Below, in pieces: positions 8,744 to 59,156 of a stretch of 63,221 bases of DNA. A program made the translations under genes and the position numbers. Under the pieces are notes generated by a model, which made no database searches, was not told where the DNA came from, and saw nothing but the letters and a program-made list of their open reading frames with translations. This DNA is from a virus (taxonomy: Duplodnaviria; Caudoviricetes): the IMG/VR virus record IMGVR_UViG_3300022891_000003, positions 1-63,221 of that record; one strand, 5' to 3'. Every line of letters starts with the position of its first letter. Position 1 is the first letter of the stretch.

Positions 8744-11342
8744 CTTCGTGAACCCGTACTCGGGAGAACCGGAGCAGACGTGCAGCGTCAGCTTCGGCGC
8801 ACAGACTCAGCTCGCGGACGCCGTCGGCAAGCCGCTGACCGAGGCGGAGTTCGGCAAGGGCAAACTGCTGGGTGAGTGGGGTGTCATCAAAGCCAAGCTT
8901 GCCAAGAAGGAGATACCCGACGGAACCAAAGTGCTCAGCTACGAGAACGAGGCGCTGGGCAGTCGAGGATTTCTGTTCATAAAGAACGGAGAGCTGTGGA
9001 AGACCACCTACCATCCGAAGCTAGGTAGGAATGTATCTCCTACAAAGGCAAAGCAGGGCGAGCTGTTCATTAACAGCGGAATCTACAAGGTCAGCATCCC
9101 GCAGGCGGTAGCTCCGGCCAACCAGCAGAAGCCGGAGGCCGTTGACGTAACCCCGGACTACATCACGAAGATTGCGCTGGCAGACGTCAAGAAGTTCAAG
9201 GACGGCCAGGTGTTCGCGGTCAAGGCCACCGGAGAGTTTGTTCGGTGGAACGCCAAGGATTCCGGGTTCTTCGAGCATGTGGTGCCGGACCCCAGCGGAT
9301 ACGGCAACGTCGTTCAGAAGGAGTTCGTGTTCTTCAACGACGAGGTGAAGAGCGGGCAGGGCTGGCTCGTGCCAGATGGCAGCAGCACCACTCCGAGCGC
9401 AACCGCCAAGAAGGTGGCTCCGCCGCCGACCAACCTTACGGCACCCATCGCCTCTCCCACCCCCGCCCCTCCCGTGCAGTCTGGAAGTACTAGCCCAGGC
9501 AGCATGAGTCACGAAGACGTGGCGGCCATGTTCGTCAAGATCAAGGACGACCTGGCTAAGGAGAAGGGGCTGAATATCAAGGGGGCCAATGCCGCGCTAG
9601 ACGAAGAGGTGTATAAGGCCATCGGGGGCGCTACCGGCTACACTCCGGTAGAGGTCAAGGCCAAGATCGATGCATACAAGGCGGCCGGTAACAAGCTCAG
9701 CGCGCTGAAGAAGAAGGTGCTGGCGGGCACGTACAAGGTTCCGGAAGGCAAGGCGGTACCGGCTAAGCAGTCGGCGCCGAACAGCCCGCTGGCCAAACCC
9801 ACGACCAAGGCCAAGGCGCCTGACCCCAAGCCGCATGGCGTGCCTACGGTGGCTACGCCGAAGCTGACCGAGGCTATCAAGGTCGAGGTCAAGCAGGCGG
9901 TGGAAGCCAAGCCTGCCAAGGTGTACAGCGATGAAGACGTGGCCAGTGCGTACATCATCGCCAAGGACGCCATCGTGGCGAACAACACCAAAGGCTGGAC
10001 GCTCTACACCAAGAATGACGAGTTCGATCTGGAGATAGCTGTCCAGGTGGGGCTCAAGACGGGGCTGAACCCGGCTCAGCAGAAGGCGGCTATTGCCAGC
10101 TACCTCGCCAGCGGCAAGAAGCTGAGCACGCTCAAGAAGCAACTCGCCAAGCAGGGTGCCTTCACTCCGCAGGCGGACAGCTTGAAGAAGAGCGGTACGG
10201 CTAAGACTGCGGCGGAGAAGAAGGCGGAGGTGGATGCCAAGGCGGACGCGGGTTACACCCCCACACCCACGATCACCACCCCGGCAAAACCGGCCACGAA
10301 AGCCAACCCTTCTGGTTCTCCGGCCGTAGATACGGCCAAGCCACCACCCAAGGCGGCGGAGAAAGACTATCTGGGTTCTGGCGACCCCTCTTGGATGATG
10401 GACCATAACAAGTCCAGCATCTTCACCAGCTTCAAGCTGGACCAGGGGAACAAGGCATGGCTCAGCGGCTCTGCCATCGATAACTATGAAGCCATTCTCA
10501 ATACGTACGAGAAGTTCAAGGACTTCGCGTGGGTAGACAAGAGCTTCAGCCTGCTACAGGTCCTTCGCGTTGTAGACGAGGAGGGCGCTAAGAAGGCGGG
10601 GGTGGCTAACGGTCATCTATTCGAGAAGAAGATTGTCGAATGGCTGACCACTCCGGCTGGCACTCAGGCCATCAAGGACCTGGAGCATAAGAAGGCCAAG
10701 GAAGCTGTCGCGAAGGCGGCCAAGGAGGCTAAGACCAAGGCGGAAGCTGAGGCCGCCAAGAAGCTCATGGCTAATCAGCCGCCCCTTCCGGCTGACAGCG
10801 CATCTTTCCAGGAGATGACTCCGACCAAGGCTCTGCGGTTTCAGGAAAGAATGCTTGCGGCTAAGCCGTTCGGCAGTGGGGAAAAGACCGGCCTCCGGCA
10901 CTACACCGGCGATGCGTACATCGAGATGAACAGCTACCTGCGCGGGCAGTCCACCAGCATCGGCACCACGAGCAAGCGGGCTATTGACCAAAGCTCGCGG
11001 GGTATGCGGCCTAGCCCGGAGCCGATGCTGTTGCGGCGCGGTACTGGATTCATTCAGTTCGGGTCGGACGTTAACGCCAATACCATCTGGGGCATTACCG
11101 GCAAGACCTTCGAGGACAAGGGCTTCCTCAGCACTAGCGCAGCCGGGAAAGCGGCTTTCGGTGGTCAGGTGGCCATGGAGATCGAGGCTCCCGCCGGAAC
11201 GCCTGGTATGTGGGTGGACAACTTCAGCAAGCATCCCGGTGAGAACGAGTGGCTTCTGGATAAGGGCACCAAGATGAAAGTTCTAAACGTGCGCAAGGAA
11301 GGTAACACGTTCGTCGTGCGACTTAGGGTGGTGAACGACTGA
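8733..11342 (+). CDS. Large protein with C-terminal VIP2/C3-like ADP-ribosyltransferase domain
   Basis: YT..Y..MN.YLR, RRG, GFLSTS and ENE (R-S-E) motifs; Ala/Lys/Pro-rich linkers and two internal repeats. Confidence 0.85.
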   Translation: MPVNFVNPYSGEPEQTCSVSFGAQTQLADAVGKPLTEAEFGKGKLLGEWGVIKAKLAKKEIPDGTKVLSYENEALGSRGFLFIKNGELWKTTYHPKLGRNVSPTKAKQGELFINSGIYKVSIPQAVAPANQQKPEAVDVTPDYITKIALADVKKFKDGQVFAVKATGEFVRWNAKDSGFFEHVVPDPSGYGNVVQKEFVFFNDEVKSGQGWLVPDGSSTTPSATAKKVAPPPTNLTAPIASPTPAPPVQSGSTSPGSMSHEDVAAMFVKIKDDLAKEKGLNIKGANAALDEEVYKAIGGATGYTPVEVKAKIDAYKAAGNKLSALKKKVLAGTYKVPEGKAVPAKQSAPNSPLAKPTTKAKAPDPKPHGVPTVATPKLTEAIKVEVKQAVEAKPAKVYSDEDVASAYIIAKDAIVANNTKGWTLYTKNDEFDLEIAVQVGLKTGLNPAQQKAAIASYLASGKKLSTLKKQLAKQGAFTPQADSLKKSGTAKTAAEKKAEVDAKADAGYTPTPTITTPAKPATKANPSGSPAVDTAKPPPKAAEKDYLGSGDPSWMMDHNKSSIFTSFKLDQGNKAWLSGSAIDNYEAILNTYEKFKDFAWVDKSFSLLQVLRVVDEEGAKKAGVANGHLFEKKIVEWLTTPAGTQAIKDLEHKKAKEAVAKAAKEAKTKAEAEAAKKLMANQPPLPADSASFQEMTPTKALRFQERMLAAKPFGSGEKTGLRHYTGDAYIEMNSYLRGQSTSIGTTSKRAIDQSSRGMRPSPEPMLLRRGTGFIQFGSDVNANTIWGITGKTFEDKGFLSTSAAGKAAFGGQVAMEIEAPAGTPGMWVDNFSKHPGENEWLLDKGTKMKVLNVRKEGNTFVVRLRVVND

Positions 11343-19234: not shown

Positions 19235-19828
19235 ATGGCACAGCCCAACTTCTCCGACATGAGCCCCGCAGAGTTCGCAGCCTGGAAGGCGGCCAACACT
19301 CCGAACGCGGACGGCCAGCAGTACCTCACCACCCTCCCGGACTCCATTCAGCCGAACTTCCCGAAGCCGAACGGCACCGAGAGCGACAAGGACCCGTACG
19401 CGGTCACGGCCTGGGGCTCTCAGGAGTACGACTTCGTGGTCCCGAGCGGCCAGCGCTGCCGGATGAAGAAGCTCCGGCCGGAGGAGCTCATCGGCAACGG
19501 CCTGCTCGACAAGATCACACGGCTTCCGGGACTCGCCGACGACCAGATCAAGAAGGCCGAAGGCCAGCCGCCGTCTGCTCTCATCAGTGCCCTTCCCTCC
19601 AAGGAAGACATGGAGAAGGTTATCGAGGTTCTCGACGAGCTGATCCCGCTGGTCGTGGTCCGGCCGGTCGTTCTTTCGATCCCGAAGCCCGACGAGACCG
19701 GAGCTGTGCAGGGTCGCTTCGAAGGCGTCGTCTACACCGACGACATCGAGCTCGCCGACCGCATCGCCATCATGAACCGGGCGACGCAAGGCGTGAGCAA
19801 GATGGATAACTTTCGCGAAAAGTCCTGA
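19235..19828 (+). CDS. Tail assembly chaperone (gpG-like)
   Basis: Between major tail and tape measure genes; AAGGAG RBS. Confidence 0.75.
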   Translation: MAQPNFSDMSPAEFAAWKAANTPNADGQQYLTTLPDSIQPNFPKPNGTESDKDPYAVTAWGSQEYDFVVPSGQRCRMKKLRPEELIGNGLLDKITRLPGLADDQIKKAEGQPPSALISALPSKEDMEKVIEVLDELIPLVVVRPVVLSIPKPDETGAVQGRFEGVVYTDDIELADRIAIMNRATQGVSKMDNFREKS

Positions 19829-20096
19829 GGCCCTGTTCAACGCCTGGTCGATGTCGAAAGCTATGAGCTGTCGGCCAAGTGCGGTGTACGGGCTGGAGCA
19901 AGGCAGCTTCGAGTCTTACGCGTTTGACAGCGCCGTGGTCCGATGGGGCAGTGCATTTGACGCAGCCCTGCAGGACGCCGTGCAAGGCGCCAAGAACGAG
20001 CAGGGGGCCGAGGCTGCACGCCAGCGGGTTATCAGGCGCTGGCTGCCATCTGAGCGCCGATACGCCGACCCTGCCAAGCGCGGTTCGGCACTGTAG
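19803..20096 (+). CDS. Tail assembly chaperone extension (gpT-like), probably reached by frameshift
   Basis: Open in the +1 frame across TTT CGC at 19811-19816. Confidence 0.6.
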   Translation, partial: WITFAKSPEALFNAWSMSKAMSCRPSAVYGLEQGSFESYAFDSAVVRWGSAFDAALQDAVQGAKNEQGAEAARQRVIRRWLPSERRYADPAKRGSAL

Positions 20097-20111: not shown

Positions 20112-23100
20112 ATGGCGTACGACCTCGGCACTGCCCATGGCAAGATCGAGCTGAGCTATGACGGTGCAGAATCCGTCGACAAGGCCAAGAAGGACATCGA
20201 TAGTGTCGGTGACAAGAGCAAGGACACCGACCGGGATCTTTCCAAGCTAGGGGCCACTCTCAAGGGTCTCGGCAAGGGCGCCAGCCTAACCTTCCTCACG
20301 GTGGGGATGACCAACGCGGCTGCGGGCGCTGCCGATCTGGTCGTCGAGCTTCTAGGGATCGTTCCTCAGCTCACGAGCATCGCCAGCTTGGCCAGCGCCC
20401 TCCCCGCTCTCTTCGCAGGCGGTGCTGCCGCGCTTGGTACGTTCAAGGCCATCACGGCAGGCGTCGGTGACACGCTCAAGGCAGCCTTCGATCCCAAGGG
20501 CGCTAAGAAGTTCGCCGAGGGGCTCAAGGAACTGAGCCCGGCCGCGCAGGAGTTCGCACGTGCGGTGCAGGCGAACGTCAAGCCTCTTCAGGAGTACCAG
20601 AAGTCCGTCCAGGAAGCCTTCTTCAGTGCCAGTGGGCTGACCAAGGCACTACCGGTGGTCAGTGACATCCTAGAGCAGTTCCGACCGCACATCATCGGAA
20701 TGGCTCATGACTTCGGGGAGGTGACCAAGCAGGTAGCAGCTTTCGCTACCGAAGGGCGTACGGTCACCTTCCTCGAGGACAGCATCTCCACGTTCCGAGA
20801 CGCGCTCAACAGCGTGCGGCCAGCCATCGAGCCCATCCTCACGGGCCTGCGGGCAGTGGGGGAGGTGGGGATGCCCCTGCTGCTCAACCTCGGTGGTGCG
20901 GTAGGGGACCTCGGCGTCAAGTTCGGCAACTGGCTGAACGCCATCGCTAGCGACGGTCGGCTCAACGAGTGGATAGATACGGCCATCGGGACGCTCAAGA
21001 CGCTGGGCGGTATCCTGCAGAACGTCGGCAGCATCTTGCAGTCGGTGTTCCAGGCCGCCGGGCAGACCGGTGGCGGGCTGCTGCAAACCATCGAGAAGGT
21101 AACCGGAGCGTTCGCTACGTTCCTCAACAGTGCGGAGGGCTCGGCCGCGTTGCGCAGCCTGTTCCAGGGCATCAGTGACGTAGCCAGCCAGCTAAGTCCG
21201 GTCATCACTACGCTCGCGGGTGCTCTGGCCGGTGCGCTGGGGCCAGCACTTACCCGCATTGCCACCGAACTCGGGCCGGTGCTGTTGCAAGTGGTTCAGG
21301 CGCTGGCTCCAGCGTTCGCACCGCTGGCTAAGGCGATTGCCGACGTGGTCATCGCCGTTGCCCCCCTCCTCCCTCCCCTTGCGCAGGCTGTGGCGCTGTT
21401 CGCTCAGTTGGCGGCTGGTGCCCTGAGCTCTATTGCGAGCGAGCTGGGGCCGGTTATCGGCCTGCTCGGTCAGGGTCTCGTGAGCGTGCTCAAGGAGCTG
21501 GCTCCGGTTATTCAGCAGGCTCTCGTGCAGGGCTTGCCGCTTGCTGCTCAGGCTGGATTGGCGTTGCTCCAGGCGTTCCGGCCGCTGCTACCTGTCATGA
21601 TCCAGTTCGGGCAGGTGCTGGCTCAGTCGCTCATGGACAACCTCCCGGCGTTGCTATCCATCGCCCAGCAGCTATTGCCGGTCATCGCCCAGCTAGCTGC
21701 GGCCTTCGCGGGAAACCTGGCAACGGCCCTGCAAGCCATCATCCCGCTCATCCCGACTATCGTGAGCGGCATTGTCGCCTTCCTGCGAGTGTTCTACGGA
21801 ATCATCTCCGTGATGCTTCAGGTGTACACAGCAATCATGCAATTCATCGGTGGCCTGGCGCAGATACCGGGCAAGATCGTGGAGTTCGTGACTGCGGCCA
21901 AGAACTTCATCGTGAACGGGTTCAACGCAGTGGTGACGGCAGTCAGTACGGCCATCACTAGTATCGTGAACTTCTTCACGGCTCTGCCCGGCCGCATCGG
22001 AGCTGGGTTGGCTGCGCTGCCCGGGGTCGTCTGGAACCTTATCAAGAACACGGCTACGCAGGCCGCATTCCTGTTCGGCCAGATGATCGGTACGTTGGTA
22101 AGCCTGAGCATCAACGTGCCCCGGCGCATCGGTGCGGCGCTGGCCGCTCTGCCGGGGGTGGTGGCCAACCTGGCTCGCAGCGCCTGGAACGCTGCGCGTA
22201 GTGCCTTCGTAGCGGGAGTCAACGCAGCGGTCAGCTTTGCTCGCCAGTTGCCCGGCCGCACTCGCAGTGCTATTAGTGCGCTGGTGGGGAACCTGCGCAG
22301 CCTGGCGGTCAGTGCGTGGAATGCGCTCAAGAGCGCGTTCTCCGGCGGCATCAACAATGCGGTGAGTCTGGCGCGCGGCTTGCCAGGACGCATCAAGGGC
22401 GCTCTGGGCAACCTGGGTAGCCTCCTGGCCAGTGCAGGCCGCGATGCCGTGCAGGGGCTTATCAACGGGCTGCGTAGTGGCATTGGTGCGGCTGCGGACG
22501 CCGCGCGCAGCTTGGGTAGCTCGGTCATGAGTGGCATCCGGAGCACGCTGAAGATCAAGTCTCCATCCAAGGCCATGATCACCATCGGTCGATACGTGGT
22601 GCAGGGTCTTGAAAAGGGGCTGCTGGGCAGTGCCGCACAGATCAAGGCCGCCTCGAACAAGCTGGCCAACTACATCAACGACGCGTTCAGCAACAAGCTC
22701 ATCAAGAGGGGTGCGCGCAACAGCGTCCTGAGCACGCTTGCCAGCGGCACCCGACAGCTTACGGCGTTGGTCAATCGCACGAACACTGTTGCCGCACAGC
22801 TCAAGAACGCGCAGACCAAGCTGGCCGATGTGCAGAAGGCGTACAACGACGTTTACGCCAATGCCGTGCAGAAGACCAAGGATACGTTCAGCTTGGTCAC
22901 CAGCGGCCAGACGTTCGTCAACCTGGACTTGACCAAGGAGCGTTTCCAGGCGGCTGTCGACCAGGCCAAGAAGTTCGCGGCAAACATCGCGAACCTTGCC
23001 AAGCGTGGTCTCAACAAGGACCTGTTGCAGCAGCTCGTGGATGCCGGGGCAGCCGACGGCGGGGCCATGGCTGCGGCTCTGGCTGGTGCCAGCAGCGCCA

Positions 23101-57373: not shown

Positions 57374-58066
57374 GTGAACAAGATTCTCGTAGTGGGGGCA
57401 CGGCCCCGGTCTATCGGCAGCGCCATCGCCAAGGTTGCCGAGAGCAAAGAGTACGAAGTGGTGCTGGCCGGTATCCACAACGAAGACGTGAAGATGGATG
57501 TGGTGGCCGACGCCATCGGCAGCTTGCGGGAAAAGCTGGTGCGCATCAACCCCGACCACATCATCTGCACGGTCGGCATGAACATGCCCGAGTCCGCCAT
57601 GGCCGACGATCCGGCCGACTGGTACCGCTGGCACTTCGAGACCAACGTGACCGGTCCGATGCGGTTGTTGCAGGCGTGGACCGACGTGAACAAAGACCGC
57701 AGCATGCTCAAGCACTACGTCGCCATCAGCAGCAACAGCGCCCGAGTGCCGCGCACCGCTTCAGCCGCGTACTGCGCTAGCAAAGCGGCCCTCTCGCAGG
57801 CCCTGCGGGTGAAGGCGCGGGAGGGAGAAGGCGGCGACAAGTGGGGAGTCGTGGTCTACGGCTACGAGCCTGCGCTCATCGCCGCGACGCCCATGACCGA
57901 GGAGGCGGCCCACAAGTGGGGTGCCGACAACCTCACCCGCATGCGCGGTTCTGGGCTGGCAAGGGGCATCTGGGTCGGCTCTTTTGCCCAGTACGTAGTG
58001 CACGGCCTACATCTCGGGCCTGCCATGAACGGCATGCTGGTGCCGTTTGATGGGGATGAGCGCTGA
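57374..58066 (+). CDS. Short-chain dehydrogenase/reductase
   Basis: VVGA...IG, N..G, ISS, YCASKAAL. Confidence 0.85.
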   Translation: MNKILVVGARPRSIGSAIAKVAESKEYEVVLAGIHNEDVKMDVVADAIGSLREKLVRINPDHIICTVGMNMPESAMADDPADWYRWHFETNVTGPMRLLQAWTDVNKDRSMLKHYVAISSNSARVPRTASAAYCASKAALSQALRVKAREGEGGDKWGVVVYGYEPALIAATPMTEEAAHKWGADNLTRMRGSGLARGIWVGSFAQYVVHGLHLGPAMNGMLVPFDGDER

Positions 58067-58252: not shown

Positions 58253-58321
58253 ACCCCTGCTAGCCGCCGCCCGTGGAGGGATGGCGTGGGATTACTGCCC
58301 GTTCGAGTCGGGCCAGGGGTA
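58253..58321 (+). ncRNA. tRNA-like RNA 5 (acceptor + T arm, single internal hairpin)
   Basis: ACCCCTG/CAGGGGT; GCCCG-TTCGAGT-CGGGC. Confidence 0.65.
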
Positions 58322-58358
58322 CGACGCCGCACAGTGCGGCGCGATTGAAAGGAACGCA

Positions 58359-58904
58359 GTGAACAACGAAGAGACCATGATCGTGATGACCAAGGACCAG
58401 CTCGCGGCGACCAAGAAGAAGGGTCGTCGCATCCTCGGCATCCCGGCCATCATCGCCGCCCCCATCGCGGCCGTTCTCGCCTTCGGCGGCGTCGCCCTCG
58501 CGGCGATCCTGTTCAGCATGACCGGCTCGGCCACGGCGCAGGCCGACAACGGCACCACCCCGACCATCTCCGGCGAGCACTTCAGCGGCAAGTTCTACCC
58601 CGGCGCGGAGCGGGACCTGATCTTCACGGTCAACAACACCAACGAGTTCCCGGTCAAGGTCACCAGCATCGCCGCGACCGGCATCTCGGACCTGACGGCG
58701 GGCTGCGAGGGCGGCGCCAAGCTGAGCGGCTTCGCCACGGCGTTCAACCAGGACAAGGCGCTGGCCGGTGGTGGCGTCACGGTTCCGGCCGGGGACTCGG
58801 CCGTCGTGACCATCCCCAAGGCGGTCAAGCTGCACCCGTCGGCGACCGCCGGGTGCGGCTTCAAGATCAACCTCAAGGTAACCGGCTCCGGCGCGGGAAA
58901 CTAA
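58359..58904 (+). CDS. Secreted pilin/fibre-like Ig-fold protein (short form)
   Basis: AAAGG RBS, GTG 58359; KKKGRR + hydrophobic + ALA signal peptide; YPG...F.V.N.N.FPV motif; two Cys. Confidence 0.75.
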   Translation: MNNEETMIVMTKDQLAATKKKGRRILGIPAIIAAPIAAVLAFGGVALAAILFSMTGSATAQADNGTTPTISGEHFSGKFYPGAERDLIFTVNNTNEFPVKVTSIAATGISDLTAGCEGGAKLSGFATAFNQDKALAGGGVTVPAGDSAVVTIPKAVKLHPSATAGCGFKINLKVTGSGAGN

Positions 58905-59011
58905 CCGGGCTCGCTCGTACCGGCGGCAACCTCTGGCCGCTTGCGGCAGCTGGAGTCGCGCTGGTACTGGCGGGTGTGCTAGTTCGAAGGGTAGGGTTTG
59001 GTCATGGGTAG
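58895..59011 (+). other. Predicted -1 frameshift site and LARTG sortase-anchor extension
   Basis: G_GGA_AAC at 58895-58901 immediately before TAA; -1 frame reads LTGLARTGGNLWPLAAAGVALVLAGVLVRRVGFGHG*. Confidence 0.75.
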
Positions 59012-59123
59012 TAAACCACCGAAGACACCACCGTCAAGGCCGATTCGCCAACCCGCCAAACCGCAGTACCCGAAACCGGCCCCCACCCCTCGGCCAGCGC
59101 CGAGGCCAGGGCCCAAGAGGTAA
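59004..59123 (+). CDS. Pro/Arg/Lys-rich peptide
   Basis: MGSKPPKTPPSRPIRQPAKPQYPKPAPTPRPAPRPGPKR, followed by a hairpin. Confidence 0.4.
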   Translation: MGSKPPKTPPSRPIRQPAKPQYPKPAPTPRPAPRPGPKR

Positions 59124-59156
59124 CACGCGGGGTCGGCCGCCACCGGCCCCGCTTAC

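Follow-up and report, generated by a model that had tools for sequence, protein, structure and literature searches.

Programmed frameshifting and sortase anchoring are each textbook mechanisms. In the dnaX gene of E. coli, a heptamer followed by a hairpin directs the −1 frameshift behind the two isoforms tau and gamma, and SasX of staphylococcal prophages is an LPXTG surface protein, that is, a phage gene product displayed on the wall by the host sortase. A heptamer of the form X_XXY_YYZ is also found near the end of the short open reading frame (ORF) of the lambda-type G/GT tail chaperone pair. Among the sortases, those of class E, with their LAXTG signals, are described as typical of soil Actinobacteria in passages of a published account (PMC5148588). 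Here we analyse a gene of the IMG/VR virus record IMGVR_UViG_3300022891_000003, which was taken whole as the window (63,221 bases, classed linear, estimated completeness 100%). The gene, whose product we call P0001, ends on a slippery heptamer, and a sortase sorting signal lies behind its stop codon in the −1 frame. We favour, with a probability of about 0.78, the reading that a programmed −1 frameshift at this G_GGA_AAC-stop site would yield a longer isoform bearing the sorting signal, which the housekeeping sortase of the host would link to peptidoglycan.

Slippery heptamer and −1 frame tail in the window

The 3′ end of the gene reads GCG GGA AAC TAA. From position 58901 the −1 frame continues with Leu-Thr-Gly, LARTG, 20 hydrophobic residues, Arg-Arg and six further residues before its stop. 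A preliminary description of this DNA had reported the 181-codon ORF, the heptamer before its stop, a hairpin and the −1 frame LARTG tail with its stop at 59009–59011, and each of these lies where it had been placed (Table 1). Under the mechanism that we propose, most ribosomes would stop at TAA after Gly-Asn and release a short, exported beta-sandwich protein. Some would slip back one base on G_GGA_AAC, either by a two-tRNA slip or by a slip of the Asn-tRNA with the stop codon in the A site, and the hairpin 4–7 nucleotides (nt) downstream would help them to do so. Slipped ribosomes would then read 36 further codons, which make up a complete cell-wall sorting signal. After export, the long form would be a substrate of the host's housekeeping sortase (class E type, LAxTG), which would cleave its Thr-Gly bond and attach it to peptidoglycan.

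Table 1. Positions in the window of the features of the candidate frameshift gene and its −1 frame tail (GC3, GC content at third codon positions; pLDDT, predicted local distance difference test).
Feature	Position	Strand	Remarks
Shine-Dalgarno-like GAAAGGA	58347..58353	+	Read from sequence; 5 nt upstream of GTG start
Frame-0 gene, 181 codons + TAA (P0001), putative short isoform	58359..58904	+	GTG start; GC3 0.945
Putative export signal: KKKGRR, ~30-residue hydrophobic segment, TGSATAQA before Asp63	58413..58544	+	Read by eye; pattern kept in family alignments
Predicted beta-sandwich body, residues 65-178, with Cys116 and Cys166	58551..58892	+	AlphaFold2 block pLDDT means mostly 83-97
Slippery heptamer G_GGA_AAC, in phase; last two sense codons Gly-Asn	58895..58901	+	Sole in-phase XXXYYYZ of gene
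−1 frame tail, 36 codons + TAG (P0002), read only after a shift	58901..59011	+	GC3 0.556
Frame-0 stop TAA directly 3′ of heptamer	58902..58904	+	Read from sequence
Extended imperfect hairpin, core 58909-58975, candidate frameshift stimulator	58906..58978	+	4-7 nt 3′ of heptamer
LARTG pentapeptide, −1 frame, class E type LAxTG	58910..58924	+	Read from sequence; pattern scan
Hydrophobic segment of sorting signal, 20 residues, −1 frame	58925..58984	+	Read from sequence
Charged tail of sorting signal: Arg-Arg + six residues + stop, −1 frame	58985..59011	+	Read from sequence

The likelihood of such a tail arising by chance was estimated with a sorting-signal pattern consisting of L[PA]xTG, a short spacer, at least 14 uncharged and mostly hydrophobic residues, two basic residues and a stop within 50 residues. 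A scan of all six frames of the window gave a single match, at 58910, and 150 third-order Markov simulations of the window gave one in total, which corresponds to 0.007 per window. The −1 frame sorting signal is thus not a product of chance. As to the heptamer, the codon usage of ten large genes of the window phage would yield it about 3.6% of the time given the residues Ala-Gly-Asn (GCG 0.345 × GGA 0.105). According to passages of a review of recoding (PMC5009743), the related G_GGA_AAG is highly shift-prone in E. coli, while G_GGA_AAC itself is the g-t shift site of the haloarchaeal virus HCTV-1 and ranks among the most shift-prone heptamers on mammalian ribosomes. The PRFect paper does not list GGGAAA. 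The −1 ORF was also looked for as a separate protein: its exact 52-residue sequence was absent from a 15-billion-protein collection, and no relatives of 28–91 residues were found, which is to be expected if gene callers skip that ORF.

The frame-0 protein has a GTG start at 58359 that is consistent with the N-termini of its homologues. Its frame is open far upstream, with an ORF from a TTG at 58047, and the database entry P0003 begins at an ATG at 58281. Because the homologues support the GTG, public gene calls for P0001 are probably 26 residues too long. A short stretch precedes KKKGRR at the N-terminus and an AQA motif is present; the export signal would be either a signal peptide with an AxA site or an uncleaved signal anchor, and AlphaFold2 models this region with a pLDDT below 60. 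For the remainder, the preliminary description of a beta-rich body with two Cys agrees with the AlphaFold2 beta-sandwich of residues 65–178. Both Cys of P0001 lie within it, C166 being invariant and C116 nearly invariant in the family.

The same description had called the protein pilin- or fibre-like, and this label is not supported. Searches of Pfam, NCBIfam and PHROG gave no family above threshold for P0001, with weak LEA_2 rows below the cut-off. Fold searches of the body returned only generic Ig-like beta-sandwiches, namely ApaG (Z 7.4, the best), an archaeal pilin (Z 7.1) and LEA14 (Z 5.7); the archaeal pili as a group appear as weak rows with Z 5.2–7.1, and TasA at rank 43. The best Foldseek match, to CanA, the cannula subunit of Pyrodictium, is likewise weak (E 5.8e-3, TM 0.29). 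Since Z values below 8 are common between unrelated chains, these rows do not support a pilin or fibre. A sortase-assembled Gram-positive pilin was considered and rejected: the fold is generic, no pilin match stands out and there is no sortase gene, the pilus type included. The only pilin row in NCBIfam is a 9.5-bit match to the tail of the related phage gene in L053, described below.

Recurrence in other phages and in the protein family

A viral contig collection was scanned for the heptamer with a stop behind it and, after a gap, back-translated Leu-Ala-x-Thr-Gly or Leu-Pro-x-Thr-Gly. The scans gave 21 stretches for Ala with a short gap, 74 for Ala with a long gap (15–44 nt before LAxTG) and at least 120 for Pro. 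No new anchor was present among the 74 and, among the matches listed, just two, L053 and L208, proved on screening of all stretches to have a −1 frame sorting signal that is closed. In both, the upstream gene is a member of the P0001 family, something that the pattern did not demand (hhalign probability 99.7%, E 2.6e-26; profile E 7.6e-29 and 8.7e-29). In pairwise comparison, the three proteins are only 26–31% identical.

L053 is a 112.6-kb record with direct terminal repeats, an estimated completeness of 100% and a serine recombinase. Its gene (10333–10908, product P0157) ends GTG GGA AAC TGA, and the −1 frame reads six residues, LALTG, a hydrophobic run, RTPRKRR and a stop. The hairpin that starts 6 nt past the heptamer has an energy of −57.4 kcal/mol (z = −4.84), and none of 200 shuffles was as good. 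L208 is a 130.8-kb record, 93% complete, whose gene is identical to the cluster representative P0056 and ends CAG GGA AAC TGA; here five residues of the −1 frame precede LPGTG, and a hydrophobic run, RLRARRR and a stop follow it. A distance of 12 bases separates the end of this tail from the GTG of a tandem paralogue, the ribosome site of which comes just after the tail.

The heptamer and the −1 frame sorting signal thus recur in three distant phage genomes. The three tails are alike in architecture and unrelated in sequence beyond what the stop codon forces, and selection on the −1 frame is therefore implied. It is hard to explain, judging from these sequences, how the design could be shared across such divergence unless the −1 frame is translated. 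The preliminary description had set the conservation of heptamer-before-stop and of a −1 frame LxxTG tail with membrane segment and basic end as a test beforehand, and the arrangement is present in 3/3 Gly-Asn-ending members with readable DNA (the window, L053 and L208). Its proposal of a −1 frameshift at G_GGA_AAC that adds a sortase signal for a borrowed host enzyme gains support from this comparison with other phages.

A scan seeded with P0157 returned its own record only, and a scan for the motif NxNxFPVKVT returned L053 and one unrelated match only. Protein-seeded scans of viral, metagenome and genome contigs (P0001, A1, A2, P0005 and P0007) gave distant cellular paralogues (L001–L003) or nothing. 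No match was obtained by blastn of the locus, or by tblastn of P0001, P0015, P0022, P0157 and P0056 against 50,697 phage records. The cassette pattern was absent from 401 sampled Actinomycetota genomes, where a reversed control gave 3 matches.

At the protein level, a profile search of 1.84 billion cluster representatives returned 542 proteins at E ≤ 0.001, and C-terminal ends were read in the best 150 of the 542. Gly-Asn is the commonest terminal dipeptide (21/150; the next, Ala-Ser, has 14) and is concentrated in the subfamily without an 'AAW...SGSG' N-terminus, where 19/68 end on it vs 2/82 in the rest. It is kept while the preceding Gly/Ser/Ala/Gln linker differs in length and sequence. 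An in-frame sorting signal is found in 0/150 of these best representatives, and longer members have Pro/Thr-rich tails instead. With P0001, its three closest homologues (P0004–P0006) and P0157 added to the 21 representatives, the Gly-Asn-ending set comprises 26 of the 155 proteins looked at. The residue before Gly permits a codon ending in G in 26/26 of this set, as the heptamer requires; at the same position, 22/129 of the other members have a residue without such a codon. We lean towards the view that this Gly-Asn-stop subfamily (26/155 proteins) uses a recoded sorting signal, LAxTG or LPxTG depending on the host, and that each infected or lysogenic cell would thereby hold a fixed mix of free and wall-linked protein by way of the host sortase.

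Within the family, P0010 and P0005 form a mosaic: the cytoplasmic N-terminus with its membrane segment and the last ten residues are near-identical, and the beta-sandwich is strongly different. This suggests recombination or diversifying selection on an exposed domain.

Cellular paralogues were found in 33/401 Actinomycetota genomes of the phylum sample at E ≤ 1e-5, including the unpublished genomes G176, G241 and G020, on which the result for the paralogues L009, L011 and L013 rests, and in 17/401 genomes of one class at E ≤ 1e-12. Among the paralogue ORFs examined, there is none with the heptamer at its end or with an anchor in the −1 or +1 frame. Paralogues of uncultured Actinomycetota (L002, L003, L016–L022, L261–L268 and others) often stand in tandem arrays of 2–3 genes, each with an 'AAW...SGSG'-type N-terminus and often with overlapping stop and start codons (ATGA/GTGA). 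We found no family name for these arrays, which are an uncharacterised secreted-protein operon. No SipW-type peptidase lies beside the cellular paralogues; TIGR02228 has matches in 5 genomes, which do not reach the cut-off and are distant from the paralogue loci.

Contrary evidence and alternative explanations

Several observations weigh against the frameshift reading. A downstream structure is present in the window, L053 and L208 and is clearly non-random in L053 only. The window hairpin (−45.3 kcal/mol vs −38.6 ± 3.4 for shuffles; z = −1.99; 5/200 shuffles fold as well) is only modestly unusual and not clearly better than shuffled sequence, and that of L208 has a z of −1.63, with 12/200 shuffles as good. 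The tails stay below the curated thresholds of the NCBIfam sorting-signal models (for the tail product P0002: NF058582, 21.5 bits against a cut-off of 27; TIGR01167, 14.2 against 15.9), which weakens the claim only slightly as these models are very short, and a Pfam search gave no match. GC3 is lower in the three tails than in their gene bodies (0.56 vs 0.95, 0.68 vs 0.91 and 0.73 vs 0.95), and the frameshift-only segment of the window's own tail chaperone pair, described below, shows a smaller drop, from 0.86 to 0.74. The codon adaptation of the tail is thus poor, as would be expected under relaxed codon selection on a rarely read segment but just as well if the tail is translated weakly or not at all. 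In E. coli, heptamers ending in A_AAC are far less shift-prone than those ending in A_AAG according to passages of the recoding review (PMC5009743), a difference that may not hold for Actinobacteria. Lastly, DNA was read for only 3/26 of the Gly-Asn enders, and 2/3 of these were found by a pattern that required the heptamer, the stop and L[AP]xTG; Gly-Asn enders lacking a tail could not be found in this way, and the count of 3/3 is biased accordingly.

Some of these points lend themselves to other explanations. The frameshift might occur and the tail serve only as a C-terminal membrane anchor or retention signal, never processed by a sortase. The sub-threshold scores against curated hidden Markov models of sorting signals would agree with this, as would the charged tail of the window, where Arg-Arg and six uncharged or weakly charged residues look weak beside the basic ends of L053 and L208. 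A plain membrane anchor, however, has no need of a pentapeptide, and L[AP]xTG stands at the right distance before the hydrophobic segment in 3/3 tails despite the differences in the rest of their sequence; we therefore regard this explanation as unlikely. It is very unlikely that the protein simply ends at Gly-Asn, the hairpin being a terminator or RNA stabiliser and the −1 frame signal remaining untranslated. Low tail GC3 would suit such a view, and GC-rich hairpins after genes are common in high-GC phages, the z value of the window being only −2. Against it stand the chance rate of the signal pattern, the complete signals that occupy one and the same position and frame in three genomes whose proteins are so divergent, and the L208 tail, which ends just before the start of the next gene. 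Moreover, the hairpin site in the window has no terminator-like T-run. It matched no Rfam family.

Two further explanations would make the break in frame accidental. The gene could be decaying, an ancestral in-frame anchor having been cut off by a one-base deletion in a GGGAAAA-like run so that the tail is a remnant. This is hardly credible, as lineages 26–31% identical would all have had to keep one and the same break at this heptamer, with three tails left intact while their sequences changed, and none of the best 150 representatives has the in-frame anchor from which such decay would start. Alternatively, an assembly or sequencing indel could have put an in-frame anchor out of frame, and GGGAAA does contain short homopolymer runs. 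Contigs of four public runs were aligned to 58300–59150, two of which (X4 and X6) covered parts of the gene only. A 1248-nt contig from a soil metagenome of another study and year (X7) covers 58450–58927 with 55 substitutions and 0 gaps. It is the contig of the homologue P0004, and its substitutions explain every amino-acid difference between P0001 and P0004 from residue 56 on; the contig ends 2 bases past 58927 and the last 47 bases of the piece were not tabulated, so that the heptamer and tail are not readable there. A 6116-nt contig from another sample (X2) has 1 substitution and 0 gaps, and may be the source of the window DNA. Four close homologues from Logan, JGI and NCBI assemblies (83, 79, 75 and 61% identity) all stop directly after Gly-Asn, and the assemblies of L053 and L208 share the frame arrangement. 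Because X7 is gapless and the four close homologues stop at the same residue, an indel artefact is excluded for practical purposes, and the error that the preliminary description had allowed for, one placing the anchor in frame 0, is not borne out.

Gene setting, possible role and relation to known systems

The large terminase of the window is 44–47% identical to terminases of Nocardia, Gordonia, Mycobacterium and Microbacterium phages, and the window therefore represents an uncultured actinobacterial phage. A search of the window for integrases of the tyrosine and serine types gave none. The frameshift gene lies between an SDR-like gene on one side and a ThyX-like gene on the other, with DnaE upstream. 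The preliminary description had noted that the window encodes no sortase; our search for PF04203 confirmed this and found no sortase gene in the L053 and L208 records either, while control genomes gave matches. As none of the three phage records has such a gene, the sortase would be borrowed from the host. At its 3′ end, the −1 frame tail overlaps by its last codons with a 41-codon, Pro-rich ORF that starts with TTG (58998–59123; GC3 0.64). The 15-billion-protein collection contains no identical sequence to this ORF, which may be non-coding.

The neighbourhoods of the other two genes provide further observations. Adjoining the frameshift gene of L053 on its upstream side is an ORF of 106 residues (9775–10095) with a DGIACD (Excalibur-like) motif and an in-frame LPVTG, hydrophobic segment and RRRRRS. 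L053 thus has two adjacent candidate sortase substrates, one in frame and one recoded; with this ordinary in-frame LPVTG protein next door and no sortase gene of its own, L053 would appear to use the host sortase anyway. In L208 (6391–7121 / G404:C1:81854-82387), the tandem paralogue directly 3′ of the frameshift gene lacks an anchor and ends in a long Pro/Thr-rich tail. The opposite strand carries a tyrosine integrase ~1.8 kb beyond this gene pair, and genes for lysogenic conversion typically occupy such a position.

Neither the fixed ratio of short to long form nor the biological role put forward in the preliminary description is supported by the analysis. With regard to role, we would only tentatively suggest a wall-fixed envelope protein that alters the surface of the infected or lysogenic cell, for example by excluding other phages. 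A variable beta-sandwich between conserved ends, together with a gene beside an integrase in L208, would be in keeping with a surface shield that is subject to an arms race, for instance one for superinfection exclusion. Furthermore, a wall-linked minority could seed or tether the assembly of the free majority.

We found no published report of frameshifting deciding whether a protein receives a sortase signal, in a search that left subscription journals and supplements outside its scope, and neither 'sortase' nor 'LPXTG' occurs in the accessible text of the recoding review (PMC5009743). The arrangement would be a new combination of two known mechanisms. If the frameshift reading is true, recoding would here serve a new purpose, namely to fix how much of one protein is covalently attached to the wall relative to a form that is released or stays in the membrane, and actinobacterial phages would be exploiting the housekeeping sortase of their hosts. 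Gene callers annotate such genes as short, anchor-less proteins, and phage-encoded wall proteins would consequently be under-counted. The cassette of heptamer, stop, hairpin and signal would also offer a small, naturally occurring tool with which surface display could be tuned in high-GC Gram-positive bacteria.

A slip site that abuts a stop codon has a precedent among tail-module genes. Three high-GC viral contigs (L071 11007–11740; L099 9421–10274, minus strand; L119 1192–1928) carry G_GGA_AAC directly before a stop. In each, an ORF of ~120–160 codons is followed by a −1 frame open for 122–125 codons more, and both halves fall in the PHROG tail category (phrog_569, phrog_680). We take these for probable G/GT chaperone pairs whose slip site adjoins the stop. 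Frameshifting by −1 is established for this class of genes, and as this arrangement is seen in tail-module pairs it would already be in use by such phages. The chaperone pair of the window itself (19235–20096) was considered as an internal control for the heptamer and rejected, as its junction is of the +1 type at TCC_TGA rather than a −1 heptamer. Its G ORF (19235–19828) ends AAG TCC TGA, the next frame is +1 and open from 19797 to 20096, and a tape measure gene of 1182 residues follows directly at 20112. In RECODE, a UCC codon adjoining a stop recurs as a +1 shift motif, with 139 cases according to a passage of PMC10885494. The record of Mycobacterium phage Hawkeye has no frameshift annotated.

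Among systems with the same signal, substrates of class E sortases such as the chaplins ChpA-C of Streptomyces coelicolor are exported proteins that end in LAxTG, a hydrophobic segment and a basic tail, as described in passages of PMC5148588. The P0001 tail has the same composition, yet in those substrates the signal is in frame on every molecule, whereas here it would be reached by a change of frame, in a viral gene without a sortase of its own; L208 differs further in having LPGTG. As in the G/GT pair, a heptamer near the end of a short ORF would give a minor, C-terminally extended product, at a fixed ratio in the case of the chaperones. However, the extension there is a folded domain that binds another virion protein and here it is a targeting signal of 36–40 residues, and the P0001 gene lies outside the tail module. 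SasX shares with the proposed long form the display of a phage gene product on the host wall through the host sortase, although proteins of the SasX type have an ordinary in-frame anchor, with no recoding and no anchor-less isoform. Finally, one gene yields two isoforms that differ at the C-terminus in dnaX, as it would here; in dnaX the shift shortens the protein, whereas at this locus it would lengthen the protein and add a sorting signal.

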